From: Patescibacteria group bacterium
Lineage (GTDB): Bacteria > Patescibacteriota > Minisyncoccia > Phycocordibacterales > JACZSL01
Assembly: GCA_022574205.1 (NCBI GenBank)
Contig: JACZSL010000001.1
Coordinates: 5,447 to 69,446, forward strand
DNA: 64,000 nucleotides
Direction: 5' to 3'
The position numbers and the translations under genes were made by a program. The stretch's first letter is position 1, and each line of letters begins with the position of its first letter. This document shows positions 15,804-56,823 of this stretch, in pieces. The notes under the pieces were generated by a model that saw only the letters and a program-made list of their open reading frames with translations, searched no databases and was not told the DNA's origin.

Positions 15804-15825
15804 CCTCCATAATGAAGTTTGGGAA

Positions 15826-17764: not shown

Positions 17765-17783
17765 ATTCTCATTCTACAAAAAG

Positions 17784-17813: not shown

Positions 17814-17853
17814 TTGCTGGTTACCCTAATCACCGACTGATTTGTCGTGTCGG

Positions 17854-18009
17854 TTAGATGGTGTCACTACAATCGGAATAAGGATCCTTCGTGTCGGTTT
17901 CCATCGCAATGCCAGGTTCACTGGCATCTGCCACATCCACCTCAACTTGTTCCGCAAATTGAAACATGAAGGGGTCCAGCGGTGTTGAAGGATCGTCGCT
18001 CTTTTTCAT
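17854..18009 (-). CDS. candidate graspetide (microviridin-like) precursor peptide, 51 aa: MKKSDDPSTPLDPFMFQFAEQVEVDVADASEPGIAMETDTKDPYSDCSDTI
   Basis: GGAGA lies 5 nt upstream of the ATG. The leader has PFxFxF like the PFFARFL motif. The C-terminal core TDTKDPYSDCSD is T/K/S/D-rich. The ORF is 75 nt downstream of the ATP-grasp gene. Confidence 0.5.
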   Translation of the reverse strand: MKKSDDPSTPLDPFMFQFAEQVEVDVADASEPGIAMETDTKDPYSDCSDTI

Positions 18010-18084
18010 ACATTTCTCCAATCGGCCGTGTTGATTCAGAGTCGTTGTAGCTTCAGATTTACTCTAACAAAAACTTGTTACTTG

Positions 18085-19095: not shown

Positions 19096-19410
19096 GGTAC
19101 AGTAAATAAACTGAGCAGATTATACTCTGTTTATGTATTTTAGTCAAGGTTTCCGCAATGGTTCAATGGCATGTAATCGAACCTTGAGTATGTTGGGATT
19201 TGTTGTGTGTGCCGTATACCTTATTTTAGCCTCTAAGGTGATGCAAAGGTATTGAAACATTACGGCTTCTTAACAATGACTGATAATGTTTCAGTAATTT
19301 AACGCAGAGGAAAGCAAAAGCTCCGTGCCGTAAGGCGCGGGGTTTTTTGTAAAGAGTGTAGCTTTTGGAGATTATATGTCACAGAAAACATTCCAAACTC
19401 TCTTGAGAGT

Positions 19411-40401: not shown

Positions 40402-41244
40402 TTACTTGGTCTTGTAGAATACCTTATTTCCGTAGCGTAAATCAATATATTCGACATTCTTTATACCCTGCTCTAGAAAAATGCTGGATAGAAGTATTGA
40501 TCTGAAATTCTCGAGAATCGTGTTTAGATTTTGGTCCGTTCTAAAGAGTAGTACGGCTCCACTTTCAAATTTAAGATGGAGGTCCGAATCTTCATCTCTA
40601 ACGAGAGCAACTGGGTTTACCTTAAGGTCACGGAGCGCCTCCAAGAAAAGATTATAACCGAGAAATTGGGCGGCGGGAAGATACTGCATTCCAAGCGGGT
40701 CTGTTACGATAAAAGTGTCATGAAGTGGTCCGTAATAGCGAAAGAATATGTCGCCAGAAAAATTTGGTGATTGTGCAAAAATATATCCTCTGTTGTCAAG
40801 ATAAAAACACTTGGAACCTTCTTTTGCCGCCAGCTTATCGGTTGCACCGCACCAAAGACCAAACGGAACCCTCTCCTTTACTTCAACTGTGATGGTGTGA
40901 AAGTCGACAAATGAGACTGAGACTCCTTTAATTCTCGGAAACTGCTCCGTCAGGAGTAAACTCATGCTACGTCTGGGATAGAGAAAGATATTTGAGCGCG
41001 GAACGAGGAACATATATGTACCGTCGAGCTCTGTATCAATAATATCTCGCAATGACTTGCTCGTTGTAATGGCGTTTCCAGAAATTTCCACCGCATCGAT
41101 ATTGATTTGTGGCAGTCGAACTAACCACGTGGAAACTGCAATAAATGAAATTGAAATAACTAACGTTAGTAAAGCTTTGACTGTTAAAATTTTTTTCTTA
41201 CGTTTTCCCAGACGCGCGCGGCCTCTTCGGCTTCTCAGGATCAT
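40402..41244 (-). CDS. cell division protein FtsQ-like (POTRA)
   Basis: Single N-terminal TM, POTRA-like region, and dcw context. Confidence 0.55.
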   Translation of the reverse strand: MILRSRRGRARLGKRKKKILTVKALLTLVISISFIAVSTWLVRLPQINIDAVEISGNAITTSKSLRDIIDTELDGTYMFLVPRSNIFLYPRRSMSLLLTEQFPRIKGVSVSFVDFHTITVEVKERVPFGLWCGATDKLAAKEGSKCFYLDNRGYIFAQSPNFSGDIFFRYYGPLHDTFIVTDPLGMQYLPAAQFLGYNLFLEALRDLKVNPVALVRDEDSDLHLKFESGAVLLFRTDQNLNTILENFRSILLSSIFLEQGIKNVEYIDLRYGNKVFYKTK

Positions 41245-41248
41245 AGTT

Positions 41249-42508
41249 TTATTCTATTGTTTTTTTTCCAAAGTAGGGTTGGAGAACTTTTGGTATCACT
41301 ATTGAACCGTTAGCCTTCTGGTTGTTCTCAATTAGCGCCACTAGAACACGTGGTGTAGCTATTGCTGTCGCGTTTAAGGAGTGTACATATTTATTTACGC
41401 CCTCTTCAGCATAGCGAATATTGAAACGGCGTGCTTGGAAATCATGATAGTAAGAAGCGCTGCCAATTTCCCTATACTTCCCCTCCGATGGTACCCAGAG
41501 TTCGGTGTCGTATGACCGAACGTGAGCACTTTTCAAGTCACCGGTGCAAATCTCTAGCTGTCTATATGGAAGTTCTAAGGATTCAATAAATTCCTCTGTA
41601 TTTCTATTTATCTCTTCGTGTAGGCGCTCGCTCTCCTCATGACTAGCCTCACACAGTATGAGTTGCTCCAGTTTGTAAAATTCATGAACTCGAACGAGAC
41701 CTTTTGTATCCTTTCCGTGGCTTCCTGCTTCGCGTCGGAAGCAAGGAGAAAACGCCAGGTATCGTAACGGTAGAGTTTCTTTTTTTAGAATTTCGTCGGC
41801 GTGATATGCCATCATTGGCACTTCTGCTGTACCAGAGAGATAATCTTCGTTTTGTGTTTTAAAGAGGTCGTTGGCGTCTCCGGGAAGGTGTCCTGTTCCG
41901 TAGAAGTATTCTTTCTTAACAATAGCTGGGGCAATAAATGGCATGAAATTTCTTTTATGAAAGAAATCGCGCGCATAATTTAACACTGCCCACGATAATA
42001 ATGCCCCATCATTTTTGAGAAAGTAACCACGAAAACCATGTACTTTTATTCCACGCTTAAAGTCCACCATGTCGTGCATTTCCATAAGTTCAATATGATT
42101 TTTTGGTTCGAAGTCAAATCTTGGCGATGTGCCCCACGTTTTAAGCTCAACGTTGTCGTCCTCACCGTCTCCTTCCGGAACTGACATGCTTGGCATGTTT
42201 GGCACTTTGAGCATTATAGATTGCCACTCATCCATCACTTTCTTCAACTTTTTTTCGCTTTTTTGTAAATTATCTTTAATCTCCTTCATGCGAGCGATGA
42301 GTTCGGTCTTCTCATTGTCACTTATGCCCTCCGACACACGGGCTGTAGCGTTATTCTGCTCCGCGCGTTTCTCCTCCACACTCGCTAGTAACTTCCTACG
42401 TTCTACATCGACAAAAAGCAAACGATCGATGTCGATTTCAATATGTTTTTTCCTCGCTCCTTCTTTTACAAGTTTGCTATTATCCCGAATAAATGTGATG
42501 TCAAGCAT
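41249..42508 (-). CDS. serS: seryl-tRNA synthetase
   Basis: N-terminal coiled coil. Class II motifs FRRE, GTAEVP and SASYYHDFQARR. Confidence 0.9.
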   Translation of the reverse strand: MLDITFIRDNSKLVKEGARKKHIEIDIDRLLFVDVERRKLLASVEEKRAEQNNATARVSEGISDNEKTELIARMKEIKDNLQKSEKKLKKVMDEWQSIMLKVPNMPSMSVPEGDGEDDNVELKTWGTSPRFDFEPKNHIELMEMHDMVDFKRGIKVHGFRGYFLKNDGALLSWAVLNYARDFFHKRNFMPFIAPAIVKKEYFYGTGHLPGDANDLFKTQNEDYLSGTAEVPMMAYHADEILKKETLPLRYLAFSPCFRREAGSHGKDTKGLVRVHEFYKLEQLILCEASHEESERLHEEINRNTEEFIESLELPYRQLEICTGDLKSAHVRSYDTELWVPSEGKYREIGSASYYHDFQARRFNIRYAEEGVNKYVHSLNATAIATPRVLVALIENNQKANGSIVIPKVLQPYFGKKTIE

Positions 42509-42532
42509 AATTTCTTTTGATGGCCTGTCTTA

Positions 42533-43414
42533 GTGTTACAATACTACAATACCATAATGAAAGGCGGCATACGACAACTTAAGGAAAGTGATTTTCCTGA
42601 GCTTTTGAGGCAAATCCCCGACCCACCCGAGAGGCTTTTCATAGAGGGGCCTGTTCCCTCAAGCAAATCGAAGCTTCTTTGTGTAGTCGGGTCGAGGCAC
42701 TATTCCCCATATGGTAAGGATGTGTGTGAGAGATTGATCTCTGGTTTATCTGGTTATAACGTGACGATTGTTTCCGGACTTGCAATCGGTATGGATAGCA
42801 TCGCGCATCGCGCTGCCATTTCGGCGAGGCTAGATACGCTTGCAATACCTGGCTCCGGGCTTGATCCGAGTGTACTCTACCCTGCTTCTCATAGAGCATT
42901 AGCAAGGCAAATTGTTGAAAGAGGCGGAACGCTTCTCTCTGAATTTGAACCAAACACACCGGCCGCGCCATTCACATTTCCACAAAGAAACAGGATAATG
43001 GCAGGGATATCGCACGCAACTCTTGTCATTGAAGCGACTCTAAAGTCAGGGACTCTCATTACGGCAAGGCTTGCTACGGACTATAATAGAGACGTGCTTA
43101 CAGTTCCGCATCCAATTTATTCTAAGACTTCCCGTGGTCCACACATGTTGCTTCGTCTTGGGGCAACATTGATAGAAAAAAGCGAGGATATACTGGAGGC
43201 ACTCCATATTGATCTTAAAAAGAGTAGTAGTTTGAAGCGCTCTCTCCTTTCCGAAGATGAGAGGAAGGTGATAGATGCATTGTATCACCCCTTGGAGAGA
43301 GACGTGCTTGTTAAAATACTCGGCATGCCAGCACGTGAAGTCAATGTCCTCTTAACAGCAATGGAAATTAAAGGTTTAATTGCTGAACGACTTGGAGAAA
43401 TACATATACTTTAA
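42533..43414 (+). CDS. dprA: DNA processing protein DprA/Smf
   Basis: Rossmann motif VVGSRHYSPYG...IVSGLAIGMDSIAHRAA. Confidence 0.8.
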   Translation: MLQYYNTIMKGGIRQLKESDFPELLRQIPDPPERLFIEGPVPSSKSKLLCVVGSRHYSPYGKDVCERLISGLSGYNVTIVSGLAIGMDSIAHRAAISARLDTLAIPGSGLDPSVLYPASHRALARQIVERGGTLLSEFEPNTPAAPFTFPQRNRIMAGISHATLVIEATLKSGTLITARLATDYNRDVLTVPHPIYSKTSRGPHMLLRLGATLIEKSEDILEALHIDLKKSSSLKRSLLSEDERKVIDALYHPLERDVLVKILGMPAREVNVLLTAMEIKGLIAERLGEIHIL

Positions 43415-43599
43415 GATTAAAATTTGACAAAATAATGTTTTTGAGTTACTAGTATATATCAATACTTGTCGCGCCTGCCCTGTTGTGAGCTTGCTCTACT
43501 ATGGGGTTAGAAAGTACGGATATATTAATTTGTTATAAATGCAAAAAAACGGGACACACTGTGTTGTGGTATATTTTAAAAGGATAATTTTCTAATTGG

Positions 43600-45825
43600 A
43601 TGAAGTTGTTAATCGTTGAGTCGCCAGCGAAGGCGAAGACAATTGAAAAATATTTGGGTAGCGAATATCGCGTTGAGGCAAGCATTGGCCATATTCGTGA
43701 TCTCCCAAAAAGTAATAAAAAAGCCATCGACATAGATGGTGGTTTTATTCCGCATTATGAAATATCTAAAGGAAAGGAAAAAATAATAAAAACACTAAAA
43801 AGCCTATCGAGGGAGGCCGAGGAAGTTGTGCTTGCTACTGACCATGACCGCGAAGGTGAGGCGATTGCGTGGCACCTTAAAGAGGTACTTGGTTTAAAGA
43901 ATCCAAAACGCATTGTCTTCAACGAAATCACAAAAGATGCAGTAAGAAATGCTATGGAGAATCCTAGAGAAATTGACGACTCCCTACGAGAAGCGCAAGA
44001 AGCAAGACGTGTACTCGATCGAATTGTCGGATATGAGCTGTCAGGATTGATTTGGAAAAAACTTCGATATGGGTTAAGCGCCGGTCGTGTGCAGAGTCCC
44101 GCACTTCGAATCATTATGGAGCGTGAACGTGAAATACGTAAATTTATTCCAGAAGACTTTTGGGTTGTCACAGCGCTTGTAGAAAATAGGAGAGGGGTGT
44201 CGTTTGAACTTGTTTGTAAAGAAGAGCCGCGCGATGAAAAAAGGATGGAATATATTCTTAAAATTGGTAAACAAGCAGATTGGCTAATAAAAAACACGAA
44301 AGAAAGTGAGGTGAAACGTGCACCGAGAGCTCCATTTATTACTTCGACACTTCAGCAGGTCGCAAGTTCCAGACTGGGCTACTCTCCCTCGAACACCATG
44401 CGTATTGCCCAGAGGCTGTATGAGGCTGGGCATATTACATATATGCGTACTGACAGTACTATTTTAAGTGCCACTGCAAAGACTCAAATCTCTGAGGTTA
44501 TTTTAAAAAAGTACGGCAAGGAGTACTTGGAGTCTCGTGTATATTCCGGAAAGAGCAAGTCAGCACAGGAAGCACACGAGGCTATCAGGCCTACAAATGC
44601 CGCTATAGTTTCAGCCGGTACCTCTCCTGATCAGAAAAAATTATACGACTTAATCTGGGCACGAACAACGGCTAGCCAAATGTCTTCTGCAACTATTGTA
44701 AAAACAAAAATTGTTGTGGAGGTGAAGAGTACCGACATTCCTGATTTTTCTATTAGTGGTTCTCGAGTTAAGTTTTCCGGTTGGCTAAAGGCTGATGTGT
44801 TAGCGCGCAGTGAAGATGTTGAACTTCCTAAAGTAAAAGCAGGTGAAATTCTTGAGTTAAAGAACCTCGACTCTCTCGCGAAGCAAACTCAACCGCTTCC
44901 TCGCTATAGCGAGGCCGGACTTGTTAAAGAATTGGAAAAGCGTGGTATAGGACGCCCAAGTACGTACGCTAGCACAATGAAGACACTTGTTGATCGAGGG
45001 TATGTCGAGAAACGTGGAAAGACGCTCTTTCCAACTGACACAGGGGATGCTGTTAGTAGTTTTCTCGAAAAATATTTTGAAAACTATATAAGTGATTCGT
45101 TTACTTCAAAGATGGAAAGTGAGCTGGACGAGATTGCTGCGGGAAAACGAAAGTATGTTGATACACTAGCTGATTTTTATAAGCCATTCCTAGCAGAGGT
45201 GAAGAATAAAGAGAACGTTGAGAAAATCACTAATCTTGGTGATGCGCCAAAAGAATTTGTTTGTCCAACTTGTAAAAGTTCTATGATTTACAAATTGAGT
45301 AGATCCGGGAAGTTTATGAGCTGTTCAAAATTCCCCGACTGTACTGGCGCACGAACGGTTGAGGGTGTTGCGCTCGAGGGCCCCAAAGAGACTGGGGAAA
45401 GTTGCCCTGACTGCACAAAGGGTAAGCTTATGGAACGTGACGGTAGATTTGGACGTTTTGTTGCATGTGATAAGTACCCGAAATGCCGGTACGTAAAACA
45501 AAGCGAGGAGGCAGTCAAACGCGCCTCAACCGGAATTAAGTGTCCAGTGTGTAAAGTCGGCCTGCCTGCGCCAAGTGAAGCGCGGCAGGCAGGTGAGATG
45601 ATTGAGCGACGAGGTCGCTTTGGTGTTTTCTATAGTTGTTCGAGTTATCCTAAATGTAAGTATGCTATAAAAGCAAAGCCAACTGGTGCTGTGTGCGAAT
45701 ATGATCGTGAAGATAAGGGGGTGTGTAATGCTCTCATGATGGAAGGCACAAAAACAATACCGGAGCGCTGTAGCGATAAAACATGCCCTAATCATAATCC
45801 TCATAAACTCACAAAGGTAGAATAA
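43600..45825 (+). CDS. topA: DNA topoisomerase I with C-terminal zinc ribbons
   Basis: TOPRIM domain MKLLIVESPAKAKTIEKYLG. The active-site Tyr region and four C4 Zn fingers are present. Confidence 0.9.
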   Translation: MKLLIVESPAKAKTIEKYLGSEYRVEASIGHIRDLPKSNKKAIDIDGGFIPHYEISKGKEKIIKTLKSLSREAEEVVLATDHDREGEAIAWHLKEVLGLKNPKRIVFNEITKDAVRNAMENPREIDDSLREAQEARRVLDRIVGYELSGLIWKKLRYGLSAGRVQSPALRIIMEREREIRKFIPEDFWVVTALVENRRGVSFELVCKEEPRDEKRMEYILKIGKQADWLIKNTKESEVKRAPRAPFITSTLQQVASSRLGYSPSNTMRIAQRLYEAGHITYMRTDSTILSATAKTQISEVILKKYGKEYLESRVYSGKSKSAQEAHEAIRPTNAAIVSAGTSPDQKKLYDLIWARTTASQMSSATIVKTKIVVEVKSTDIPDFSISGSRVKFSGWLKADVLARSEDVELPKVKAGEILELKNLDSLAKQTQPLPRYSEAGLVKELEKRGIGRPSTYASTMKTLVDRGYVEKRGKTLFPTDTGDAVSSFLEKYFENYISDSFTSKMESELDEIAAGKRKYVDTLADFYKPFLAEVKNKENVEKITNLGDAPKEFVCPTCKSSMIYKLSRSGKFMSCSKFPDCTGARTVEGVALEGPKETGESCPDCTKGKLMERDGRFGRFVACDKYPKCRYVKQSEEAVKRASTGIKCPVCKVGLPAPSEARQAGEMIERRGRFGVFYSCSSYPKCKYAIKAKPTGAVCEYDREDKGVCNALMMEGTKTIPERCSDKTCPNHNPHKLTKVE
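45766..45816 (+). repeat. topA 3'-end segment (copy 1, native, encodes ..CSDKTCPNHNPHKLTK)
   Basis: Reference copy for the two downstream diverged copies. Confidence 0.75.
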
Positions 45826-45983
45826 ATGCATGCAACCTACGTTGCATGCATTATTGTTTTTGTGGGGCGGAGCGATGTTTCGCGACTAGCGAAACCGCGA
45901 GCCGGGGTCGACGAGCACTTAGTAGATTGCGAGCACTTGGAGCAATATACTTGAGTTGCTTGTGACCAAAAACTATTCCTGAA

Positions 45984-46035
45984 CGTTGTAGTGACAAAAC
46001 GTGTCCGAACCATAACCCGCATAAGTTAGATAAAG
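45984..46035 (+). repeat. diverged copy 2 of topA 3' end (would encode ..CSDKTCPNHNPHKLDK)
   Basis: About 75% identical to copy 1 at DNA level, with same-frame conservation of the peptide. Confidence 0.75.
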
Positions 46036-46185
46036 TAGTAAAGAAAAAAGTGCAAAATAATGTTGTAGTCTTCGTTTGTTATTATCTCTTATAATATTTT
46101 TCTCAAATTCATAAGTTTAGATTATTTTCTAAACTAGATTTTAAGTTCTTTGTAATCATCAGTTGTAAATTCAGGAAAGGTACTT

Positions 46186-47085
46186 GTGGTAAAAGCATAT
46201 ACATATACAATTAGGCAAATTATGAAAATTGTATACACTATAGCAATTATTGGCAGTGGCGTGATTGGTGGTGCAACAGGAACTGGATTTGCATCACTTG
46301 GAAATATCGTAATATTCATAGATAATAATCCAGACACGCTTGCTAGACTTACCCGCAATGGACACACTACTAGTAGCATTAATGAATTGCCTCAACACAA
46401 TCCAAATATCATATTCATGTGCTTGCCAATACCAACCACCTATAAAGGTGTTGACTTGTCGGCACTCGAGAACACCCTTTGCAGTGTAGCTGAATACCTT
46501 GCGACTACTGAAACTGATTATCCAATAATCGTTTTACGAAGCACTGCTCCAATTGGCACAACACACTCTGCAATAAGATTACTTGAAAAGTACAGTGGTA
46601 AAAAATGTGGACAAAACTTTGGTGTATGTGTAAATCCTGAATACCTACGTGAGCGATATGCGGAGGACGATTTTCTTAATCCACACGTTGTAATTATTGG
46701 CTCAGAAGACACAAAGGCAACTAAGCGCCTCACTGAACTCTATATAACAATTACCGACAACATAGCAGTTATTGGTATTAGAGAAGCCGAACAACATAAG
46801 TACATCCATAATCTTTATAATGCGTGTAAAATTTCATTCTTTAATGAACATAGATATGTGTGTAACGTACTCGGTATTGATGCCGATACCGTATTTCCCC
46901 TAGTCGTAGAAAGCTCCGAGGCGTCATGGAACCCTATATATGGAACTAAAGATATGGGTGCGTTTTGTGGCAGTTGTTTACCAAAAGATACAAAAGGTTT
47001 CTTGAAGTTTGCGAAGCAACATGCATTATCTATGCCTCTGCTTGAAGCAATTATTGTTGTCAATGAACGAACTAAATCTGTTTAA
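46186..47085 (+). CDS. UDP-glucose/GDP-mannose dehydrogenase-family protein, short (lacks C-terminal domain); start may be 46222
   Basis: NAD-binding motif IGSGVIGG and catalytic-Cys motif GAFCGSCLPKD. The protein ends after the central domain. Confidence 0.55.
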   Translation: MVKAYTYTIRQIMKIVYTIAIIGSGVIGGATGTGFASLGNIVIFIDNNPDTLARLTRNGHTTSSINELPQHNPNIIFMCLPIPTTYKGVDLSALENTLCSVAEYLATTETDYPIIVLRSTAPIGTTHSAIRLLEKYSGKKCGQNFGVCVNPEYLRERYAEDDFLNPHVVIIGSEDTKATKRLTELYITITDNIAVIGIREAEQHKYIHNLYNACKISFFNEHRYVCNVLGIDADTVFPLVVESSEASWNPIYGTKDMGAFCGSCLPKDTKGFLKFAKQHALSMPLLEAIIVVNERTKSV

Positions 47086-47256
47086 ACCTCTTTCTTCCAT
47101 TATTTTCTCCTAAACGTGCGAATAGTCAAATTTTGTCTACAACTTTTTGAAAATCTAAAAATAACGCGTCAAATCTTATAATTTTAAACAAGGTGAAAAG
47201 TAAATATTTATATCTTTACAATAATTTGAGTAAATAAATTATATGTTTTACATATT

Positions 47257-47817
47257 CTATAAGAAGTCTTTAGTAAAAAGCACATTCTTATATTGTAAAA
47301 CATCAATCCAGTTGTTATGAAAACACAAATGTATGACACCTGTGTTTTGCAGACCATAAATTGTGTTAAAGTGTTTAAATACCTCCTCGTTTGGACTAGT
47401 ACCATGTAGGGCAATCCAAAGCATTTGTTTAATAAATGCGGCATGACTACACACAAGTATGCACTGGGAATTGATCACTGCTATAAAACGAAGTGCGTCG
47501 TGTGCGCGCCGCTTAAATACACTATAGGACTCTAATGGACTAAGTTCACGCTCATTAAACATGGTATTTGGAACATTTTTTACTCCACATATTTCCCCTA
47601 TAATTGTAGCGGTTTCTATTGATCGTACCAGCGCGCTAGACATAATACAATCTATTTTTTCTATACCAACAAAAGCCCGTGCTGCCTGCTGAACCTGCCG
47701 CACACCATTTATACTTAATGATTCACTTGTACTTGGTTCTGCATTACGAATGTTACTGAATGTCTCGCCATGCCTCATAAGATACACGTGTTTATACTTA
47801 TGCTTTGACGTATACAT
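47257..47817 (-). CDS. histidine phosphatase (phosphoglycerate mutase family)
   Basis: Motif LMRHGETFSN (RHG). Confidence 0.7.
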   Translation of the reverse strand: MYTSKHKYKHVYLMRHGETFSNIRNAEPSTSESLSINGVRQVQQAARAFVGIEKIDCIMSSALVRSIETATIIGEICGVKNVPNTMFNERELSPLESYSVFKRRAHDALRFIAVINSQCILVCSHAAFIKQMLWIALHGTSPNEEVFKHFNTIYGLQNTGVIHLCFHNNWIDVLQYKNVLFTKDFL

Positions 47818-47866
47818 ACATGTATATTAACATGCTGATCATCTTATACTCATATGTGATATAAAT

Positions 47867-49111
47867 GTGTCTTGGATACACAGTATGATTTGGGAAAAAC
47901 ATAACATAATTAACGTAATACTCTTTATTGATAACTACCCCATACCTAGTGGTGGTATGGAAATGCACGCACACGCATTTATGCAGCACTTCAAAAACCA
48001 CTCTCGTATTCGTATACAACACGTTATTGCATTCTCCAACAGTCCGCATGATGTACAGAATAATAAGGACGGAATTCTGGTATTACCAAAAAGTATCATA
48101 CACAACCCAAATGGTTTAATAACCGCTCTCAGGAAAGTAGGTATTAGTGATCATGGTGTATTCTTTTTTAATAGTCTCTACTGGATAGAAACACTTGCAG
48201 TACTAAAAAAAACATTTCCTGACACAGTGTACATACAACGATCTGGTGGTAACGATATCATGCAATCGCGTGTTCCCGCAGGCGGAAACACTCTCGCTGA
48301 AAGACAGAAGTTTGTCGTCTCAACACTTAATGCACATTTAGACACACTTATTATTAACAGCGAATATACACGCAGTCGTTTTAAGATACTGGGTATATGC
48401 GACGCATTGATGTATACAATTGTTGGCGGTGTTGATACAAAAATATTTCATCCTATAACAAAAGACCAACAAAGAATATTGCGGTTAAATATGCAATTAC
48501 CACTCGACAAAACGATAATACTAAGTGTGTGCAGAATGGTGTCCTTCAAGGGGTTGCCGTATCTAATATGTGCGATCGCAAAACTTGCCGCACGCAATAT
48601 ACACTATATTATTGTGGGTGATGGGCCAGAAAAACAACGAATACAAACACTAATTGACCAAAATGGGCTACAAGACTCAGTAACACTAGTCGGTGAAATA
48701 CCTATGCAAGACATTCATAAGTATTACAAAGCATCTGATATATATGCCCTAACACCAATCGAAGAATTAGTAATCATTAAAGAGGAATCATATATCCGCA
48801 CTGAGACTATGGGGAGAAGTTTCTGTGAAGCAATTGCCACCAACCTGCCAATAGTGGCGTCATTAGTGGGTGGAATACCCGAAGTTTTAAAAAAATATCC
48901 ACATGCCGTGCTTGTATCACAACAAAACACCGTTGCAACTACACATGCGATTATGACTAAACTTGAGCCGTGTTATCAATATATTAAATCTAATATTACA
49001 TTACCGAACACACACTCTTGGTATGCTATATTTAACACATATGAACAACTATTTACTACAACATCAGCGCATCGCCATACTTGCAGGACGAGACCCAGCA
49101 ATGAAACATGA
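47867..49111 (+). CDS. glycosyltransferase family 4
   Basis: E-x7-E region ETMGRSFCEAIATNLPIVASLVGGIPEV. Confidence 0.7.
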   Translation: MSWIHSMIWEKHNIINVILFIDNYPIPSGGMEMHAHAFMQHFKNHSRIRIQHVIAFSNSPHDVQNNKDGILVLPKSIIHNPNGLITALRKVGISDHGVFFFNSLYWIETLAVLKKTFPDTVYIQRSGGNDIMQSRVPAGGNTLAERQKFVVSTLNAHLDTLIINSEYTRSRFKILGICDALMYTIVGGVDTKIFHPITKDQQRILRLNMQLPLDKTIILSVCRMVSFKGLPYLICAIAKLAARNIHYIIVGDGPEKQRIQTLIDQNGLQDSVTLVGEIPMQDIHKYYKASDIYALTPIEELVIIKEESYIRTETMGRSFCEAIATNLPIVASLVGGIPEVLKKYPHAVLVSQQNTVATTHAIMTKLEPCYQYIKSNITLPNTHSWYAIFNTYEQLFTTTSAHRHTCRTRPSNET

Positions 49112-50303
49112 TACAGACGGCGGATCGGTATATTTAGAGTACCTAGTAGAAACACTCACCAAGTGCGGCGCATATATAGATGTATATATACCGTCTGGTG
49201 TAAAAGGCGCTATTTATAACAAAGAAAGAGATTCTCAGCAAAAAAGTAGTACTGGTAGCAATATATGGGACAATGAAATCGTACGGGTAATCTATTTTCC
49301 AGTGGATCAATGTACGCGCAATGATGTAGATATAACAGAGGACTACTTCTGTGCGCGAATAGAGAAATCGAGTTACATAGCAAAATTTTTTGCAGACAGA
49401 AAACTATATTCGTACAATGCTGTATATATACTGCATATGGCAAATGCATTTGCTGTTATACAAGAACGATTAACTGATGTGGATAATACTGTGGTCTTCC
49501 CTATGATGACCAGTGTTCATTATGAAAAATTTTCGGAAGTACCAAAAGAATACATTGAGGCAGAACAATCTGTATTTGATTGTATTAAACACATATGCAG
49601 CCCTTCAGAAGATGAAATTTGTAACATACAAAAAAGGTTTAGTGTACCTAAGCACAAACTCTTCAAGGTACACAGAGGATTTTCGGACAATGATTTCCCA
49701 CCTCAAAAGCACTGTGTCACAAATACAAACATTATTACACTTTTTTCAGCAAATGGTATCCGCCCACAAAAAGATCATCTTTTCCTCATACCACTCGTTG
49801 TAGAGCTACTACGTCACAACCTACATGTACATGTACACCTAACCGGCAACAACGGACATAGCCACAACCCGGTTTATAATGCATACACAAAAAAGTTTTG
49901 GGGTGCTGTAAAAGATAGTGGTCTTACTAATCACTTTACTGCACATGGTGTTGTTAATCGCACAGAGCTAGTGCGTATCATGTCATCGTGTGACTATGCA
50001 ATCTATCCTTCTATATCAGAAACATTTGGAAAATCAGCGCTAGAAAGTGTAGTAAGTGGATTACCGACAGTTGTATTTGATGACGTACCTGCATTCGGTG
50101 AATTCATCATACATAATGATACTGGTATCATAACCCCTAGAGAACCAATTGCCTGCGTAAAGACAATTTTAGATATTCATAAAAATCCAAACTTGTATAA
50201 AAATATAAGAACACAAGGATTGAAGCTACGAGACACCTTTACATGGAATTCTATAATGCGCGATTTTATACAAAAACAACACTCTCGTTATATTCTTTAC
50301 TAA
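49041..50303 (+). CDS. glycosyltransferase family 4-like (start moved to MNNYLL to limit overlap)
   Basis: Motif SETFGKSALESVVSGLPTVVFDDVPAFGE. Confidence 0.6.
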   Translation: MNNYLLQHQRIAILAGRDPAMKHDTDGGSVYLEYLVETLTKCGAYIDVYIPSGVKGAIYNKERDSQQKSSTGSNIWDNEIVRVIYFPVDQCTRNDVDITEDYFCARIEKSSYIAKFFADRKLYSYNAVYILHMANAFAVIQERLTDVDNTVVFPMMTSVHYEKFSEVPKEYIEAEQSVFDCIKHICSPSEDEICNIQKRFSVPKHKLFKVHRGFSDNDFPPQKHCVTNTNIITLFSANGIRPQKDHLFLIPLVVELLRHNLHVHVHLTGNNGHSHNPVYNAYTKKFWGAVKDSGLTNHFTAHGVVNRTELVRIMSSCDYAIYPSISETFGKSALESVVSGLPTVVFDDVPAFGEFIIHNDTGIITPREPIACVKTILDIHKNPNLYKNIRTQGLKLRDTFTWNSIMRDFIQKQHSRYILY

Positions 50304-50310
50304 TATAACA

Positions 50311-50362
50311 GCGATACAATGACAAGATGTGTCCCAACCATAACTCGCATAAATTAAACAAG
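50311..50362 (+). repeat. diverged copy 3 of topA 3' end (would encode ..MCPNHNSHKLNKNK)
   Basis: About 70% identical to copy 1. A hairpin at about 50365-50390 follows. Confidence 0.65.
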
Positions 50363-50424
50363 AACAAATAAAAAGGCGCCACTAAGTGGCGTCTCTATTG
50401 TGTTGTGCCGTGAAGAGCCGTTGG

Positions 50425-50655
50425 CTATGACCCAAAGCCTACTTCTTTCTGCAGATCATGCGAGCGCTGTCTCATTGCGTCAACTCCACGGCCACCTCCG
50501 TACTTCTGGACATGTCGGACAGCTACATCATACACACATGTGAACATGTTGTGTCCGGGTTCTAACTCTGAAAAACGCTCTGTACATCCAGGACAGCGAT
50601 TGACGTCGCAGTCATCCAAAAAAGCAGGCGTGTGGTCCGTTACCATAATTAGCAC
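50425..50655 (-). CDS. small Cys-containing hypothetical protein
   Basis: ORF with a downstream hairpin plus T-run on the minus strand. Contains C..C pairs. Confidence 0.3.
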   Translation of the reverse strand: MLIMVTDHTPAFLDDCDVNRCPGCTERFSELEPGHNMFTCVYDVAVRHVQKYGGGRGVDAMRQRSHDLQKEVGFGS

Positions 50656-50673
50656 CTCGTTGCATATTTACCA

Positions 50674-52233
50674 GTGAAAAGTATAATGATCATTATGCTC
50701 AATGTCAAGGACATTATTTCACTTATGCCCAGCGTCCCGTCACAAGAAGGTGTCGAGCTTATTAAAAAGGCATATGCGTTTGCAGAAAATGCTCACCAAG
50801 AAGACGACAGGCTTTCCGGCGAAACTTACATGATACATCTTCAGTCCACAGCCGGAACACTTGCCGAACTTGGTCTCGGCCCGCGAGCTATTTCCGCAGG
50901 GCTCCTTCATGATGTGATTGAGGACGGAAGAGCTGATGAAAATACATTAAAAAAAGAGTTCGGAGAAGAAGTACTTTTTCTTGTTCAAGGTGTCACCAAG
51001 CTTGGTCATTTGAAGTACCGGGGTGTAGAGCGACATGTTGGAAGCCTGCAAAAATTATTTGTTGCGACTTCTCAAGATGTCAGAGTGCTTCTCATAAAAC
51101 TTGCAGATAGACTGCACAACATGAGAACTCTTGATGCGCAGCCAAAAGTAAAGCAGAAACGTATTGCTCTTGAGACACTCGAAATATATGTTCCTCTTGC
51201 CTATCGTCTTGGCGTACGCCGTATTAATCGTGAATTAGAAGATCTTTCTTTTATGTATATTTATCCTAAAGAGTATGCTGAAGTAAAGGAGATTCTCAAG
51301 CAGCGGGCGGCGGAAACAAACAAGCGTCTTGATAAACTTCGCAAATCGATTCGGAAAGCATTTGCAAAGGAAAATCTGGAAATTATTGAAACTTACTGCA
51401 GAATTAAGGGGCTGTTTAGCCTTTACAAAAAATTGCAGCGAAAGGATAAAGACATTGAAAAAGTTTATGACGTTGCTGCGCTTCGCATTATCGTTTCAAC
51501 GGTTAGTGACTGTTATAGTGCGCTCGGTATCATACACGGTATCTACAGGCCACTCACAGGCCGCATAAAAGACTATATTGCACTCCCCAAACCAAACGGT
51601 TACCAAAGTTTACATACAACTGTTTTTGCAGGAGATGGAAGTATTGCTGAAATACAAATCAGAACAGCGGAAATGCATAAACAAGCCGAGTTTGGTATCG
51701 CATCACATTTCACTTATAAACCTGGAGATACGAAAGGAATCTTTAACCAAAATTTTGATTGGCTTCGCCAACTACTCCCAAATGTAATGATGCCGACTAA
51801 TGTAAATGTCGATGGTTTTTTTAAGACAACGCCTAAGCAAGAAGACGTGAAATCCCCACGTTGGATTAAAGAACTTGCTCGTGAACAACAGGGTGCGTCT
51901 TTAGAGCCACAAGAATTTATTAAAATTTTAAAAGCCGATTTTTTCGACTATCGAATATTTGTCTTCACGCCAAAGGGTGACACAGTTGACCTACCCACTG
52001 GTTCGAGCCCTATTGATTTTGCATACGCTATTCACTCTTATATAGGAAATCATATTTCGGGTGCAAAAGTGAATGGTAAGCTTACCGCGCTCGATGCAGA
52101 ATTGGAAAATGGTGACATAGTTGAAATTCTTACAAAGGATAGTAGCCATCCGACTCAAAAGTGGATGGGCTTTGCAAAAACAACGCTTGCACGTCGTCAT
52201 ATTCGTACTGTTTTGCAGAAAAAGAAATCCTAA
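50674..52233 (+). CDS. relA: short bifunctional (p)ppGpp synthetase/hydrolase (HD + synthetase + TGS, no ACT)
   Basis: HD motif HLQSTAG...LHDVIED. RelA/SpoT synthetase region YKPGDTKG...; TGS motif GDIVEILT. Confidence 0.8.
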   Translation: MKSIMIIMLNVKDIISLMPSVPSQEGVELIKKAYAFAENAHQEDDRLSGETYMIHLQSTAGTLAELGLGPRAISAGLLHDVIEDGRADENTLKKEFGEEVLFLVQGVTKLGHLKYRGVERHVGSLQKLFVATSQDVRVLLIKLADRLHNMRTLDAQPKVKQKRIALETLEIYVPLAYRLGVRRINRELEDLSFMYIYPKEYAEVKEILKQRAAETNKRLDKLRKSIRKAFAKENLEIIETYCRIKGLFSLYKKLQRKDKDIEKVYDVAALRIIVSTVSDCYSALGIIHGIYRPLTGRIKDYIALPKPNGYQSLHTTVFAGDGSIAEIQIRTAEMHKQAEFGIASHFTYKPGDTKGIFNQNFDWLRQLLPNVMMPTNVNVDGFFKTTPKQEDVKSPRWIKELAREQQGASLEPQEFIKILKADFFDYRIFVFTPKGDTVDLPTGSSPIDFAYAIHSYIGNHISGAKVNGKLTALDAELENGDIVEILTKDSSHPTQKWMGFAKTTLARRHIRTVLQKKKS

Positions 52234-53234
52234 ACGGAGAAGTTGCGTATGGAATACAAATCATCCGGGGTCTCCGTGCTCTTAGTGTCATCTTCTTGTT
52301 TATCTTCTGTGTGGGCATCTCTTTCTTCTGTTGAAGAGCTTTCGTTAAGTGTATCTTCGCCATCATTTATCTTCTCGGGTTCAGGCGCTCTTGATAGAAC
52401 CTGGGTGTCCCCAGAACGCAATATAGTTAACAGGTTTCTCAGATCGTCCTCCGAGAAATAGTCAATAACGATTTTTCCTCCAACTTCCCTGCTCTCTATC
52501 TGTACACGCGTACCAAGACTTTCCGTAAGTTTCTGCTCAAGTTCAATAATTTCTGGAGAGAATAACCGGCTTTTCTTTCGTACACGATCTCTGGCAATTC
52601 GTCTGGCAATAGCTTCAGCTTCGCGTACCGTTAGTTTTTTATACTGAATTTCCTTAAAGAGCGTCTCCTGTTCCTCCGGCCTATCTGAAAGCATCATGAT
52701 TGGACGCGAGTGGCCTTCTGTAATCTCACCGTTTGCAAGCGCTTGTTGCATGTGCTCCGGAAGAGTCAGTAGCCGCAGGCTATTTGTGACATACTCACGA
52801 CTTTTTCCTATTTTCTTTGCAATTTGAGTGTGTTTAAATTTAAATTTTATAACAAGTTGCGCAAACGCGTGTGCGCGATCAATTGGGTTTAAATCCTCAC
52901 GTTGAATGTTCTCGATAATCGCAAGTTCGAGCTTCATCTGATCGCTGTCGTCTCCTGTACGAATAATCAGAGGAACACGCTCGAGTCCGGCTATTTTTGA
53001 CGCTCTAAGACGCCGCTCACCAGCAATAAGTTCGTATTCAACAAACAACCCACCGTCTTCTTTAATAGTCTCTTTGCGAGTGGCAACTAGCGGTTGTAAA
53101 ATACCGTACTCTCGTATAGAATCGGCAAGATCAGCAAGTTTGTGCTCGCTGAACTGACGCCGTGGTTGAAATGGATTGGGTTTGATGCGGTCAACTTCCA
53201 CCCAAAAAACTGAATCTCCTTTTATAGATGACAT
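52230..53234 (-). CDS. parB: chromosome partitioning protein ParB with acidic C-terminal extension
   Basis: ParB box GERRLRASKIAGLERVPLIIR and the HTH region. Confidence 0.8.
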   Translation of the reverse strand: MSSIKGDSVFWVEVDRIKPNPFQPRRQFSEHKLADLADSIREYGILQPLVATRKETIKEDGGLFVEYELIAGERRLRASKIAGLERVPLIIRTGDDSDQMKLELAIIENIQREDLNPIDRAHAFAQLVIKFKFKHTQIAKKIGKSREYVTNSLRLLTLPEHMQQALANGEITEGHSRPIMMLSDRPEEQETLFKEIQYKKLTVREAEAIARRIARDRVRKKSRLFSPEIIELEQKLTESLGTRVQIESREVGGKIVIDYFSEDDLRNLLTILRSGDTQVLSRAPEPEKINDGEDTLNESSSTEERDAHTEDKQEDDTKSTETPDDLYSIRNFSV

Positions 53235-53424
53235 TTTTACTTTAATGTAGTAATTATATCACGAAAAAAAGTCGACTCAAATTGAAAAAAGGGTGGCTTT
53301 GTCGTAGAGTTATAGGATCCGGTTCACATATTGGGCGAGTGGCCAGGAGAATCTGATGGTATACGCGCAAAGCGGCATTGCTAAATTAAATACTTAGTTT
53401 AGAGTGGAATAGAATCGAATGTAT

Positions 53425-53505
53425 GCCGCGGTGGCGGAATTGGTATACGCGCACGACTCAAAATCGTGTGGAGCAATCCATGAGGGTTCGACCCCCTCCC
53501 GCGGC
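53425..53505 (+). tRNA. tRNA-Leu (anticodon CAA), type II with long variable arm
   Basis: Acceptor GCCGCGG/CCGCGGC, anticodon loop CTCAAAA, T-arm GAGGGTTCGACCCCCTC. No encoded CCA. Ends may be off by a few nt. Confidence 0.75.
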
Positions 53506-53751
53506 ACATAAAACACTAGGCCCTGGTGCAAGAGCACTGGGGTCTTCGTGTTTTACCGTTGGGGATGGAGTTGAAAGGCGGAGACGGTACACAAGACGAG
53601 CGAAGCGAGGACTTGTCGCCGAGTCGTGGTTAAGAACGCTTAGTATTTTGCGAATGTTTGGAGCAAAATACTTAGTGATTTGTGACCAACTCCCTCCTCG
53701 CAAACAAAAATAACAGCTGAGTACAAAATGTACTTGGCTGTGTTTTTTATA

Positions 53752-54294
53752 TTACTTATTTCTTAAGTAATCCAGCATTGTATCAACATCGCTTATCTCA
53801 AACGGATCGGTTGGGCAATCATTTTGGAAACCTGGTTCGATAAATATTTTTTCTATTTTTCCATCGTCTACAAACATGCTGTAACGCCAACTTCTCTCAC
53901 CAAATCCAAGATCATCCTTTTTAACAGCCATGTCCATTGCCCGAGCGAAATTTCCTGAGCCGTCTGGAAGCAACTTAACATTTTTAATGTTCTGGTCTTT
54001 ACCCCACTGGTACATTACAAAAGCATCGTTTACAGAAATACAATATACTTCGTCAACTCCAAGAGCTATTAGCTCATCATATTTTTTTTCATACCCAGGT
54101 AAATGTGTTGAACTACACGTTGGCGTAAACGCACCGGGTAAAGAAAATACAACAATCTTTTTTCCTCTAAATAAATCCTCTGTCATAACATCCTCCCAAC
54201 GAAATGGGTTATCGCCTGGCACCGATTCGTCGCGGACACGAGTTTTCAATGTTACATTAGGTACTCGGGTGGGGGTTTTTGGTTCTTGTGTCAT
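53752..54294 (-). CDS. peroxiredoxin (Prx5-like, thioredoxin fold)
   Basis: Motif PGAFTPTCS with the peroxidatic Cys. Confidence 0.8.
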   Translation of the reverse strand: MTQEPKTPTRVPNVTLKTRVRDESVPGDNPFRWEDVMTEDLFRGKKIVVFSLPGAFTPTCSSTHLPGYEKKYDELIALGVDEVYCISVNDAFVMYQWGKDQNIKNVKLLPDGSGNFARAMDMAVKKDDLGFGERSWRYSMFVDDGKIEKIFIEPGFQNDCPTDPFEISDVDTMLDYLRNK

Positions 54295-54344
54295 ATTTAC
54301 TTTTGAGTTTATAGTTATATGGTGGCATTGTATCACATATTATT

Positions 54345-55244
54345 ATGAGTAATAAAAAACAAAAGATTTTGGTAGTCGTAGGTCCAACAGCTTCTGGAAA
54401 AACAAGACTTTCTATAAGTTTGGCGAAAAAATTTAATGGGGAGATCATTTCCGCTGATTCAAGGCAGGTGTATAAAGGTCTCAACATTGGAACAGAAAAA
54501 GCATCAAATAAAGAAATGCAGGGTATCCCCCATCACTTAATAGATGTGTGTGATCCATCTGATACTTTTACGGTTCGTGATTTTAAGAAACATGCTAAAG
54601 ATGCTATTCGTGAAATTGCTTCGCACAGCAAACTTCCAATAGTGACCGGTGGCTCAGGATTTTATATAGATGCTCTTTTGTACAAAATAGATTTTCCGGA
54701 AGTGCTACCAAACAAGAGTTTGCGTAAAGAGCTAGAACATAAGTCAAAGGATGAGCTGTTCACCGTATTAGAGGAAAAGGATCCAGAGAGGGCGAAGACT
54801 ATAGATCCACACAATAAAAGACGTCTTATTCGTGCGCTTGAAATAATAGAAAAGCTAGGGAGCGTCCCGGAGATTGGTGTAAGAGAGGGTGTATACGACA
54901 CGCTTATAATAGGCATCAAAACCAGTGATCATAAACTAAAAGAAAAAATTGAGGAGAGGTTTGGAGAAACTATGGAAAAAGGTCTGATAAATGAAATAAT
55001 GTTACTACGAAACAACGGAATTTCAGATGAGCGGATCAATGAATTTGGACTTGAGTATAGAGTTGGTTTGGAGTTTTTAAATGATGATATATCTGAAGTT
55101 GATATGAGAGAGAGGATTATTGGCGAGTTGTGGAAGTACGTGAAGCGACAAAAAACGTGGTTTAAGAGAAACAAAGATATACTGTGGTTTGAGATTGATA
55201 ATATCGAGGAAATTGAAAAAGAAATCAACAATTTTTTAAACTAA
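54345..55244 (+). CDS. miaA: tRNA dimethylallyltransferase
   Basis: P-loop GPTASGKT plus DSRQVYKGL. Confidence 0.85.
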   Translation: MSNKKQKILVVVGPTASGKTRLSISLAKKFNGEIISADSRQVYKGLNIGTEKASNKEMQGIPHHLIDVCDPSDTFTVRDFKKHAKDAIREIASHSKLPIVTGGSGFYIDALLYKIDFPEVLPNKSLRKELEHKSKDELFTVLEEKDPERAKTIDPHNKRRLIRALEIIEKLGSVPEIGVREGVYDTLIIGIKTSDHKLKEKIEERFGETMEKGLINEIMLLRNNGISDERINEFGLEYRVGLEFLNDDISEVDMRERIIGELWKYVKRQKTWFKRNKDILWFEIDNIEEIEKEINNFLN

Positions 55245-55321
55245 ACTCAACACGCCAGCTGCGATCGAGCGTAGTGGGTACTTCTTTCGAACCCTCGTGG
55301 GCTAACGCGTGGTTACAAAAA

Positions 55322-55347
55322 AGGCCATGAAAAACATGGCTTTTTTG
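55322..55347. terminator. hairpin gccatg-aaaaa-catggc + T6 (bidirectional)
   Basis: Directly after miaA and also 3' of the minus-strand tRNA-Trp. Confidence 0.6.
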
Positions 55348-55351
55348 TTAC

Positions 55352-55425
55352 TGCGGGTCCACCAGGACTTGAACCTGGGACGGTGGTTTTGGAGACCACT
55401 GTTTTACCAACTAAACTATGGACCC
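55352..55425 (-). tRNA. tRNA-Trp (anticodon CCA)
   Basis: Reverse complement: GGGTCCA...anticodon loop CTCCAAA...T-arm GGTTCAAGTCC...TGGACCC-G. Confidence 0.75.
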
Positions 55426-55719
55426 AAAAATCTCTGAGAGAGATTTTTTGACCATTGTGGGAGACTTTTACAAATCATACCACAAACTCTAAGTGGCTTA
55501 TTTTTTGACTTCCGTATGAAGTAAGTGCTTTCTGTCCCACTTACAATACTTCTTGAGCTCGATTTTACGCGTAACCTGTTTACGATTTTTTCTGGTCCAG
55601 TAGTTAATCCGATTACATTTACTACAAGCTAGTTTTATTAATTTATCTTGTGACATAATTTCCGTGTCTATGTTTAGTAGACGCCATTATAGAGTATGTT
55701 TGGAGAGTAGTCAAATTAT

Positions 55720-56823
55720 CTACCCTCCAATAATTCTTAAAATATCGTTGTAGGAAATGAGTAAAATGAGAAGTATTAAGAGTATGAAAAAGATGTTGTG
55801 AAGTGAATTTATTACATTTGGTTGAAGTGGTGAACCTTTTACAACTTCTATAAGTAGAAACAATAAACGTCCCCCATCAAGTGCTGGAATTGGAAGAATA
55901 TTTATAACTGCTAGATTTATTGAAATGATTGCTGTAAAGAATAGGAGGGAGACTATACCAAGTTCTGCTGCATCCCCCACGACGCTTACAATGCCAATTG
56001 GCCCAGCAATATCCGAAAGATCTGCAGACAATGTAAATGCGCCTACTATGAGAGCACCGATGGCTACAGCTACGGTTTTAGTAATTTGATACGTTATTTT
56101 TCCTCCTTCCCACAGTGCAATGTGTACAGGGTATTTAAGATCTCCAATGAGGGCCATTGATATGCCAATGGCTCTACGATCCGGGTCACCGCTAATCAGG
56201 CCTAATTCAGGCATAATTCGCAAGGTTACCTCCTCGTCTGCGCGCATAAGAACAAGCTCTATGTCACCGCTACCCCCTACAATGTACGTAACAATTTTAT
56301 CTATGCCATTCAGAGGATCGATTTTATTTCCATCAAGTGAAATTATGCGGTCGTCCGATAAAATTCCTGCTATAGCTCCCGGAGAGCCTTCTAATGTCTC
56401 CATAATTACTACCTCAACGTTTTTGCTGTACTTGAGATCAGTATCGGAAACTACGGTTGTTACTCCAATCAAAAATATAACGGCAAATATAAACCAAGCA
56501 AAAATCAGATTAAAGACTACACCAGCAACCAACACTAAGGCCTGAATAATCTTTGGTTTGTTTACAAAACTCCTCTCGCTATCAGGTCCCGATATTGATT
56601 CTTCATTTGGATTCTCACCAAAAATTTTTACAAATCCACCGAGCGGAATCCAGTTTAGCGTATATTCTGTCCCATTTTTCCTTCCTAACGTTAAAATTTT
56701 TGGTGGAAAACCAATGCCAAACTCATCTACCCGAATACCGTTTTTTTTGGCAACAATAAAATGCCCAAATTCATGAACAAGTATTAAAATCACGAGTATG
56801 ACAAGGAAAATAATGACTGACAT
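55720..56823 (-). CDS. rseP: RseP-like site-2 zinc metalloprotease with PDZ domain
   Basis: HEFGHF motif near the N-terminus; PDZ region; C-terminal LDGGRL. Confidence 0.8.
   Translation of the reverse strand: MSVIIFLVILVILILVHEFGHFIVAKKNGIRVDEFGIGFPPKILTLGRKNGTEYTLNWIPLGGFVKIFGENPNEESISGPDSERSFVNKPKIIQALVLVAGVVFNLIFAWFIFAVIFLIGVTTVVSDTDLKYSKNVEVVIMETLEGSPGAIAGILSDDRIISLDGNKIDPLNGIDKIVTYIVGGSGDIELVLMRADEEVTLRIMPELGLISGDPDRRAIGISMALIGDLKYPVHIALWEGGKITYQITKTVAVAIGALIVGAFTLSADLSDIAGPIGIVSVVGDAAELGIVSLLFFTAIISINLAVINILPIPALDGGRLLFLLIEVVKGSPLQPNVINSLHNIFFILLILLILLISYNDILRIIGG

Follow-up and report, generated by a model that had tools for sequence, protein, structure and literature searches.

The genomes of Patescibacteria are tiny and contain few mobile elements that can be recognised as such, and for this reason gene exchange in these organisms is poorly understood. 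Here we describe a locus in a 64,000-nucleotide stretch of the genome of a Patescibacteria group bacterium (assembly GCA_022574205.1, contig JACZSL010000001.1, positions 5,447 to 69,446 of the forward strand), referred to below as the window, in which the coding tail of the topA gene occurs in three copies (c1, c2 and c3). A structured element of about 125 nucleotides lies between c1 and c2, and a strain-specific island of four sugar-related genes lies between c2 and c3. The history that we consider probable is one of serial insertions of a unit that replaces the 3' end of topA, followed by exchange of a cassette between the repeated tails. The element is widespread and absent from Rfam, with at least 120 metagenome contigs carrying it and two copies in the window, and in its behaviour it resembles an insertion by which gene ends, those of topA and of tRNA genes, are duplicated. 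There is evidence that the dead gene ends act as recombination sites for swapping a four-gene envelope or sugar cluster between strains.

The closest described systems each share some of these features. Islands and prophages that tyrosine integrases place in the 3' ends of tRNA, tmRNA and protein genes resemble this locus in that a direct repeat of the 3' end is present, the upstream gene is left intact, the repeats run from the crossover to the gene end with crossovers in the T-loop or 3' end of tRNA genes, the targets are very conserved, and tandem accretion occurs at one site. The unit described here differs in its size of only ~200-240 bp, in having no integrase nearby, and in containing a structured element with covariation of the RNA type rather than recombinase arm sites. 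We know of no description of the topA tail as an integration target. Cis-mobilizable elements (CIMEs), integrative mobile elements exploiting Xer recombination (IMEX) and pdif modules are likewise small or cargo-only segments between recombination sites that are moved by enzymes acting in trans, and the sole recombinase of the window is Xer-like. However, no dif-like site was identified here, there being no reference dif for this lineage, and the repeats are gene ends that vary in length from 6 to 81 nucleotides, in place of fixed 28-bp sites.

Bacterial class C group II introns have their insertion sites immediately past intrinsic terminators. The element similarly starts right after a terminator hairpin and T-run and holds a short sequence complementary to the adjoining target, but it is only ~125 nucleotides long, has neither domain V/VI nor a reverse transcriptase nor an Rfam intron match, and its complementary target lies downstream of it, not upstream. 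Flexible islands exchanged through homologous recombination between conserved flanks provide a fourth comparison, since a glycosyltransferase block is present or absent between strains that are 98% identical and differs by replacement rather than simple insertion, with both junctions in homologous sequence; the flanks here are pseudogene tail copies of ~60 nucleotides from earlier insertions and not full core genes. No description of such an RNA motif or element in Patescibacteria was found in the literature. The group I tRNA introns reported for this phylum occupy the anticodon loop (position 35/36) and have no relation to the element (PMC13011429).

Tail copies of topA and the structured element

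The topA gene of the window (43600-45825, plus strand) encodes a protein of 741 amino acids with the Pfam domains Toprim, Topoisom_bac and Zn_ribbon_Top1, and its conserved C-terminal tail, GTKTIPERCSDKTCPNHNPHKL, which is almost without variation among 120 TopA homologues, is the target that has been repeated. Copy c1 (45749-45815, plus strand) is the topA end now in use, and c2 (45967-46033, plus strand) is a displaced, intact copy. Copy c3 (about 50309-50371, plus strand) is decayed, the first ~15 nucleotides of the tail being absent, and is followed by a terminator-like hairpin (50374-50394, plus strand) upstream of relA. A repeat finder recovered a three-copy family (45774-45815, 45992-46033 and 50320-50361, with 83% identity between the second and third copies over 42 nucleotides) and a longer pair with 78% identity over 58 nucleotides (45749-45806 and 45967-46024). 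When all six frames of the window were searched for the last 20 residues of TopA, the second and third copies scored 105 and 71, and the best unrelated segment 31. Copies c1 and c2 both encode the peptide KTIPERCSDKTCPNHNPHKL, and c3 encodes QRYNDKMCPNHNSHKLNK. The three in-frame copies claimed in a preliminary description of this DNA are therefore real, although the third has decayed.

Over 20 codons, c1 and c2 of the window differ by ~15 synonymous and ~1 non-synonymous changes, and their longest exact shared runs are only about 8 nucleotides; c2 and c3 differ by 8 synonymous and 9 non-synonymous changes. Pooling of c1 and c2 from 10 loci gave a proportion of synonymous differences (pS) of about 0.93, which is saturated, and a proportion of non-synonymous differences (pN) of 0.135, with the peptide kept between the two copies in 9 of 11 loci. 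The displaced copy cannot be translated because the TGA of a conserved GUGAC motif stands in frame ahead of every c2 and no start codon is present, and c2 was rejected as a translated alternative end on these grounds. An untranslated duplicate that had arisen in place and persisted long enough to saturate its synonymous sites should bear many non-synonymous changes and indels; we infer that, at most loci, each of the two copies has its origin in a separate lineage and that the displaced copy is young. Mutagenesis by a diversity-generating retroelement was likewise considered and rejected, as the 13 differences between c1 and c2 hit all four bases and fall at third codon positions, and no reverse transcriptase occurs in the window.

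Decay is apparent in the older displaced copies. The c3 of the window lacks one Cys codon, that of the related strain L201 is frameshifted, the displaced copy in locus L023 is truncated, and those in L031 and L121 contain insertions between ...K and CPNH. As a side observation, displaced tails are broken at the same place, between ...RCS.K and CPNH, where L031 (11113-11225) has an insertion of ~50 nucleotides, L121 (360-516) has one of ~110 nucleotides with hairpins, and the window (50320-50326) has the right junction of the island; this point may be a second preferred breakpoint. Copy c3 has an unusual DKM in common with the tail of the nearest species, L202, which weakly suggests that c3 is the original topA end of the lineage.

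The spacer between c1 and c2 had been treated as filler, and it instead holds the key component, a conserved structured element (45848-45976, plus strand) found again in many other genomes, both at the tail of topA and at the 3' ends of tRNA genes. The inserted unit also includes a terminator-like hairpin with a T-run (45825-45862, plus strand, the hairpin itself occupying 45825-45852), and a hairpin is found at this position upstream of nearly every member of the element family. The element forms a three-way junction comprised of a closing helix (P0), an arm (P1/P2) with conserved GGAGCGAUG...CGAG, and a long arm (P3) that ends in GUGAC. The order of parts is the terminator hairpin and T-run, a short P0 5' strand, G-X-C GGAGCGAUG, a hairpin, CGAG G-Y-C, GGGGUCG, a long hairpin and GUGAC, directly after which the tail copy begins. 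A covariance model built for the element (R1) and run on the window identified two copies, of which the one in the spacer scored 70.2 bits with an expect value (E) of 5e-17.

Comparison among species supports this fold. In three other species (L014, L020 and L031) a second tail copy lies 140-170 nucleotides past the topA stop, the spacers align with that of the window, and compensatory changes were evident in 7 of 23 pairs with only four sequences. In a 62-sequence alignment, 92% of paired cells were consistent with pairing as compared with 74.8% in shuffles, and the covariation score was 0.486, whereas shuffles gave 0.170 and sliding of the partners gave no more than 0.147. Changes on both sides were found in 22 of 34 pairs, and one pair was seen as GC (25), CG (22), AU (10) and UA (3). 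A G-U pair at one position shows no variation across the 62 sequences and another position is either GU (33) or GC (22), and these G-U pairs point to the plus strand as the folding strand, as RNA or as single-stranded DNA. Searches against Rfam 15 gave no gathering-score match in the window, none at E<=10 on 45780-46100, and, at E<=5, none overlapping the element in eight other loci. The possibility that the spacer is a tRNA, a tmRNA or a known RNA was rejected, as neither ARAGORN nor Rfam returned a match.

The second copy of the element (53570-53691, plus strand; R1 15 bits, E 0.03) is divergent and lies 62 nucleotides past a tRNA-Leu(CAA) gene (53425-53507). It is followed by CAACTCCCTCCTCGCAAACA (about 53686-53705), a diverged tRNA-Leu 3' end, and its P0 strand (GGAGTTG) fits this downstream copy and not the actual upstream tRNA.

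Such a relationship between P0 and the target counts for an intron-like or RNA-guided mobile RNA. In this scheme the P0 strand would pair with the first 6-8 nucleotides of the target, and insertion or 3'-end replacement would be directed by the RNA itself, either as a ribozyme or by guiding a protein supplied in trans. All six P0 pairs covary with changes on both sides, the P0 3' strand is the start of the duplicated target, the tRNA-Leu(CAA) copy matches its downstream repeat, the junction nucleotides are strongly conserved, and insertion occurs directly after a terminator as for class C group II introns. However, ordinary selection on an RNA helix would account for the covariation of P0 equally well, there was no recognisable catalytic motif, and there is neither a ribozyme or intron match in Rfam nor an associated protein, so that we regard this scheme as very improbable. 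A related reading would treat the element as the founder of a new class of miniature mobile element, specific to what is seen here in Patescibacteria, whose RNA is itself active, as a P0 target guide or as a ribozyme, and which inserts at conserved tRNA and topA 3' ends, supplies a replacement end and a terminator, and leaves behind old ends that become landing pads for cassettes; this we consider speculative and rather unlikely.

The sugar island and strain L201

An exact-sequence look-up of the window TopA gave no match, and strain L201 (GCA_022565145.1) was reached through the TopA homologue P0001 (99%). By blastn, positions 1-5057 of L201 correspond to window positions 40964-46024 (98.2% identity) and positions 5209-10877 to window positions 50326-55994 (97.7% identity), and between these blocks the 151 bp of L201 (5058-5208) and the 4301 bp of the window (46025-50325, plus strand) are unrelated. 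The island is therefore polymorphic between strains. L201 contains c1, the spacer element, c2 (which ends HKLTKE and a stop) and c3, all without the island, and it follows that the island did not create the copies. The breakpoints, 46024/46025 and 50325/50326, fall within c2 and c3, and on the island side the sequence is still tail-like at both, reading HKLDKVVKKK in the window and HKLTKE in L201 at c2, and QRYNDK and KRCGDR, respectively, at c3. The two strains therefore have different alleles of this segment, which were probably swapped through crossovers inside c2 and c3. The part of c3 left of 50326 arrived with the island and the part from 50326 onward is common to L201; the right junction lies ~15 nucleotides into the tail and not at the canonical repeat start of all other units. 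The donor of the island would already have had the four-gene block between two tail copies.

The island comprises a short UDPG/MGDP nucleotide-sugar dehydrogenase (46222-47085, plus strand; Pfam PF03721 and PF00984, the N-terminal and central domains only, with NCBIfam TIGR03026 below cut-off), a histidine phosphatase of branch 1 (His_Phos_1; 47257-47817, minus strand; PF00300) and two glycosyltransferases of family 4 (GT4; Glycos_transf_1, PF00534). The first GT4 gene (47867-49111, plus strand; public annotation start 47885) encodes a protein 100% identical to the public protein P0121, and the second (49107-50303, plus strand) overlaps it by 5 nucleotides. The G+C content (GC) of the island is 0.365 as compared with 0.415 for the rest of the window, where no other 4.3-kb stretch falls below 0.383, and its tetranucleotide distance is 0.315 as compared with a mean of 0.159 (standard deviation 0.031, maximum 0.280) in other stretches; taken singly, the island genes are just 0.9 to 1.3 standard deviations under the window mean in GC.

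These results retain much of the preliminary description, including the four genes as it listed them, the placement of the island boundaries inside copies 2 and 3, the foreign composition of the island, which is the most AT-rich and most tetranucleotide-deviant 4.3 kb of the window, the occurrence of successive events, and the lack of an integrase in or beside the island. Its view of an element that integrates into a gene 3' end is correct in that the gene-end duplicates are genuinely of that kind, and fails in that the island was not their maker, since L201 has the copies without it. Simple insertion of the island gives way to allelic replacement, 4301 bp for 151 bp. The comparison with related genomes that it proposed did uncover an island-less arrangement, in L201, which retains c2 and c3 and is not a single-copy empty site.

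The composition and the junctions within c2 and c3 also fit a classic integrase island that entered site-specifically at the topA 3' end, brought c2, displaced c3 and then lost its integrase, with c1 as the product of a second event. Duplication of a gene 3' end at island borders is a known signature of tyrosine integrases and counts for this explanation. The unrelated 151 bp between c2 and c3 of L201 argue against it, as they indicate a replacement rather than insertion at a single attachment site, as does the position of the right junction inside the tail and off the canonical repeat start; none of the four island genes encodes a recombinase, and the only candidate is the Xer-like gene at 36155-37201. 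An integrase island thus appears to be a remote prospect, and we retain exchange between repeated tails as the preferred explanation.

The likely home of the four genes is apparent from their homologues. For the first GT4 protein just 43 homologues could be detected, every one of them from Patescibacteria. In four distant genomes (L204-L207) the four genes lie immediately upstream of relA, their order and orientation unchanged, with trpS as the neighbour at the far end, and the proteins are 36-59% identical to those of the island. The island genes are thus not a random assortment, but a conserved relA-linked block of other Patescibacteria. The GC of the L204-L207 loci (0.364-0.385) matches the 0.365 of the island. 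The dehydrogenase homologues in these genomes are equally short (288-316 amino acids), and the short form is thus a family trait and not a truncation. The idea that the homologous blocks would be flanked by topA-tail remnants was dropped, as none were found around the blocks of L204-L207. A scan with one genome per species recovered 80 loci related to the topA-relA locus, all from Paceibacteria or other Patescibacteria, and none of these loci with topA-relA synteny contains the four island genes. Judged from these sequences, gain in the lineage of the window is more likely than loss in L201.

The block of L204 (6546-12059), like those of L205, L206 and L207, consists of the dehydrogenase, the histidine phosphatase (minus strand), two GT4 genes and relA. 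This conserved five-gene arrangement suggests a functional link between the sugar pathway and the (p)ppGpp enzyme.

Spread, turnover and proposed history of the unit

The contigs with the element, all Patescibacteria, were obtained by a metagenome pattern scan, and the family is larger than the 120 matches because the element subtype of L132 and L203 escaped the search pattern. That subtype, in L132 copy A (about 1000-880, minus strand) and in L203 (10218-10555), has GGAGCCAUGUCGC...GCGACRGGCGAG instead of GGAGCGAUGUUU...AAACCGCGAG. A viral origin was rejected, as a pattern scan of IMG/VR gave no match. Among the matches listed, to which the next counts also apply, a same-strand tRNA gene precedes 76 of the 104 elements with enough upstream sequence, the median distance from tRNA end to element is 34 nucleotides, and 27 anticodons are represented; the commonest protein-gene neighbour is topA (10 loci). 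In 22% of cases the upstream gene has its 3' end directly repeated, with the repeat beginning exactly after GUGAC, as compared with a null expectation of 0.25%, and in the tRNA cases this repeat spans T-loop position 56 to the tRNA end, with an intact tRNA upstream. Elements within 60 nucleotides of a tRNA gene number 64, of which 16 have a repeat of only 5-8 nucleotides (the clearest consist of the last 3 nucleotides of the tRNA and the start of the trailer) and 39 have no exact repeat.

Turnover of the unit at topA is directly visible in one pair of genomes. L209 and L210 have identical TopA proteins and flanks that are 99.96% identical on both sides, and L209 contains an extra 237 bp made up of the terminator, the element and a 64-nucleotide tail repeat (L209 5132-5432 compared with L210 2739-2802). 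This second presence/absence polymorphism is evidence that the unit is variable at present between near-identical strains. The order tail, terminator, element, tail is found in L014, L020, L023 and L031, which represent 4 of about 37 GTDB species with this tail type, and also in L107, L121, L132, L152, L188, L191, L203 and L209; L132 has three tails with two different element subtypes between them. Repeats are identical in L209 (64 nucleotides), L155 and L148, and L020 has an identical tract of 33 nucleotides. Target-site duplication by a transposase or by target-primed insertion would give repeats that are identical at first, with later decay of the non-functional copy. The identical repeats of L209, L155 and L148 fit such a duplication, whereas the window and most topA loci do not, their repeats being synonymous-saturated with an intact peptide.

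Tandem arrays occur in L155 and L148, and L203 has near-identical tandem units in three copies. Arrays and partial element copies were noted at L155 1-230 and L148 4100-4343 and in L198, L184 and L124. In the arrays, the terminator hairpin stands between two P0 strands, the 3' strand of one copy and the 5' strand of the next, which could lengthen it. Such pairing across the terminator would offer a fold other than the three-way junction.

The arrays bear on a different explanation, in which the element would be a resident RNA with a function of its own, such as a module for the 3' processing or stability of tRNA and mRNA, and the tails result from local tandem duplication and unequal crossing-over, their similarity being maintained or eroded by gene conversion. 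The near-identical tandem units of L203, L155 and L148, the identical repeat of L209 and tract of L020, the lack of a mobility enzyme, and the fixed distance after tRNA genes of most elements among the matches listed, which resembles a functional position, are all in keeping with duplication in place. It is difficult to reconcile with synonymous saturation in copies whose peptide is kept in 9 of 11 loci although c2 is untranslatable, with two different element subtypes in tandem in L132, and with related species that have the same synteny and no element, and we consider it doubtful.

Serial insertion with later exchange would proceed as follows. A unit of ~200-240 bp, consisting of its own tail copy with stop codon, the terminator hairpin and the ~125-nucleotide element, would land repeatedly in the last ~60 nucleotides of topA, joining the chromosome by recombination inside the tail, so that topA keeps a working end and the earlier end is pushed downstream as a dead copy. 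The starting arrangement would have been topA (with c3), terminator and relA, which makes c3 the oldest displaced tail. A first unit, carrying c2, would have displaced c3, its element part being no longer recognisable, and a second unit (c1, terminator and intact element) would have displaced c2, so that c1 is the newest copy and c2 was displaced more recently than c3. In the strain of the window, the segment that begins at the end of c2 and reaches the middle of c3 would then have been exchanged for the four-gene block, which is native next to relA in lower-GC Patescibacteria, with the repeated tails serving as portable homology for the exchange.

Candidate enzymology includes homologous recombination after DNA uptake and a recombinase acting in trans. 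The identical tracts of L020 and L209 fit homologous recombination, and the runs of ~8 nucleotides shared by c1 and c2 fit site-specific or RNA-assisted joining better. The Xer-like tyrosine recombinase (plus strand; Phage_integrase and SAM_1 domains, with XerC/XerD models matching below cut-offs) is the sole recombinase found within the window and lies ~9 kb from the locus; it is a candidate for action in trans, although nothing ties it to the repeats.

Several points weigh against this history. The short runs shared by c1 and c2 are a poor substrate for recombination of the RecA type. No element remnant was detected between c2 and c3 with R1 unfiltered (L201 4800-5600; window near 50.3-50.7 kb), and the origin of c2 and c3 from the unit is for that reason drawn by analogy only. 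The state of L210 could reflect a precise deletion between repeats and not a never-occupied site, and it is possible that the island was lost in L201 instead of gained in the window. Among the matches listed, about 78% of elements have no long flanking repeat, and the family could consist chiefly of functional RNAs resident downstream of tRNA genes, for which mobility is not the primary trait. Finally, no recombinase, reverse transcriptase, transposase or other conserved protein was found within 4 kb of 116 listed elements, and a conserved protein partner was rejected when clustering of 1444 neighbouring open reading frames (ORFs) yielded housekeeping genes and one spurious ORF that overlaps the element; as no protein is enriched, the proposed mobility has no identified enzyme.

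Two roles can be envisaged for the element, a selfish integration module and an RNA resident downstream of tRNA genes, and it may fill either or both. If it is driven by its RNA, it would represent a new mobility mechanism; if it is the passenger of a host recombinase, it would still provide a new RNA family and a concrete route for accessory genes in an uncultured phylum. Annotators of these genomes should regard pseudocopies of gene tails downstream of topA and of tRNA genes as a systematic feature and not as assembly noise.

Gene context of the locus

The finding is located among the genes serS (minus strand), dprA, topA, relA and parB (minus strand), and this order is common to all 80 related loci. 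The conserved right-hand neighbour, a relA/spoT-type (p)ppGpp enzyme (50674-52233, plus strand), has the Pfam domains HD_4, RelA_SpoT and TGS. The gap between topA and relA is just 7-50 nucleotides in many relatives (e.g. L001, L003, L004, L010, L011, L015, L016, L019 and L021) and in others is filled by 1-5 kb of unrelated genes, and the junction is therefore a variable spot in the clade.

Other occupants of this gap were also noted. Histidine-phosphatase-like genes with an RHGE motif stand alone in it, without glycosyltransferases, in L009 (12975-13568) and L013 (12984-13499), both on the minus strand. An ORF of 76 amino acids containing Cys (50425-50655, minus strand) lies between the c3 terminator and relA of the window and is conserved only in L201 (92%), and on the basis of this single homologue it was rejected as a conserved gene; unrelated small minus-strand ORFs occupy the same position in other species. 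Away from the locus, positions 1-19100 of the window contain a long series of ORFs without Pfam match and several proteins with domains of unknown function, together with a gene for an ATP-grasp protein of the MvdD type (18088-19095) and a Big_7 protein (8670-10334), and may represent a peptide-modification or surface-protein region.

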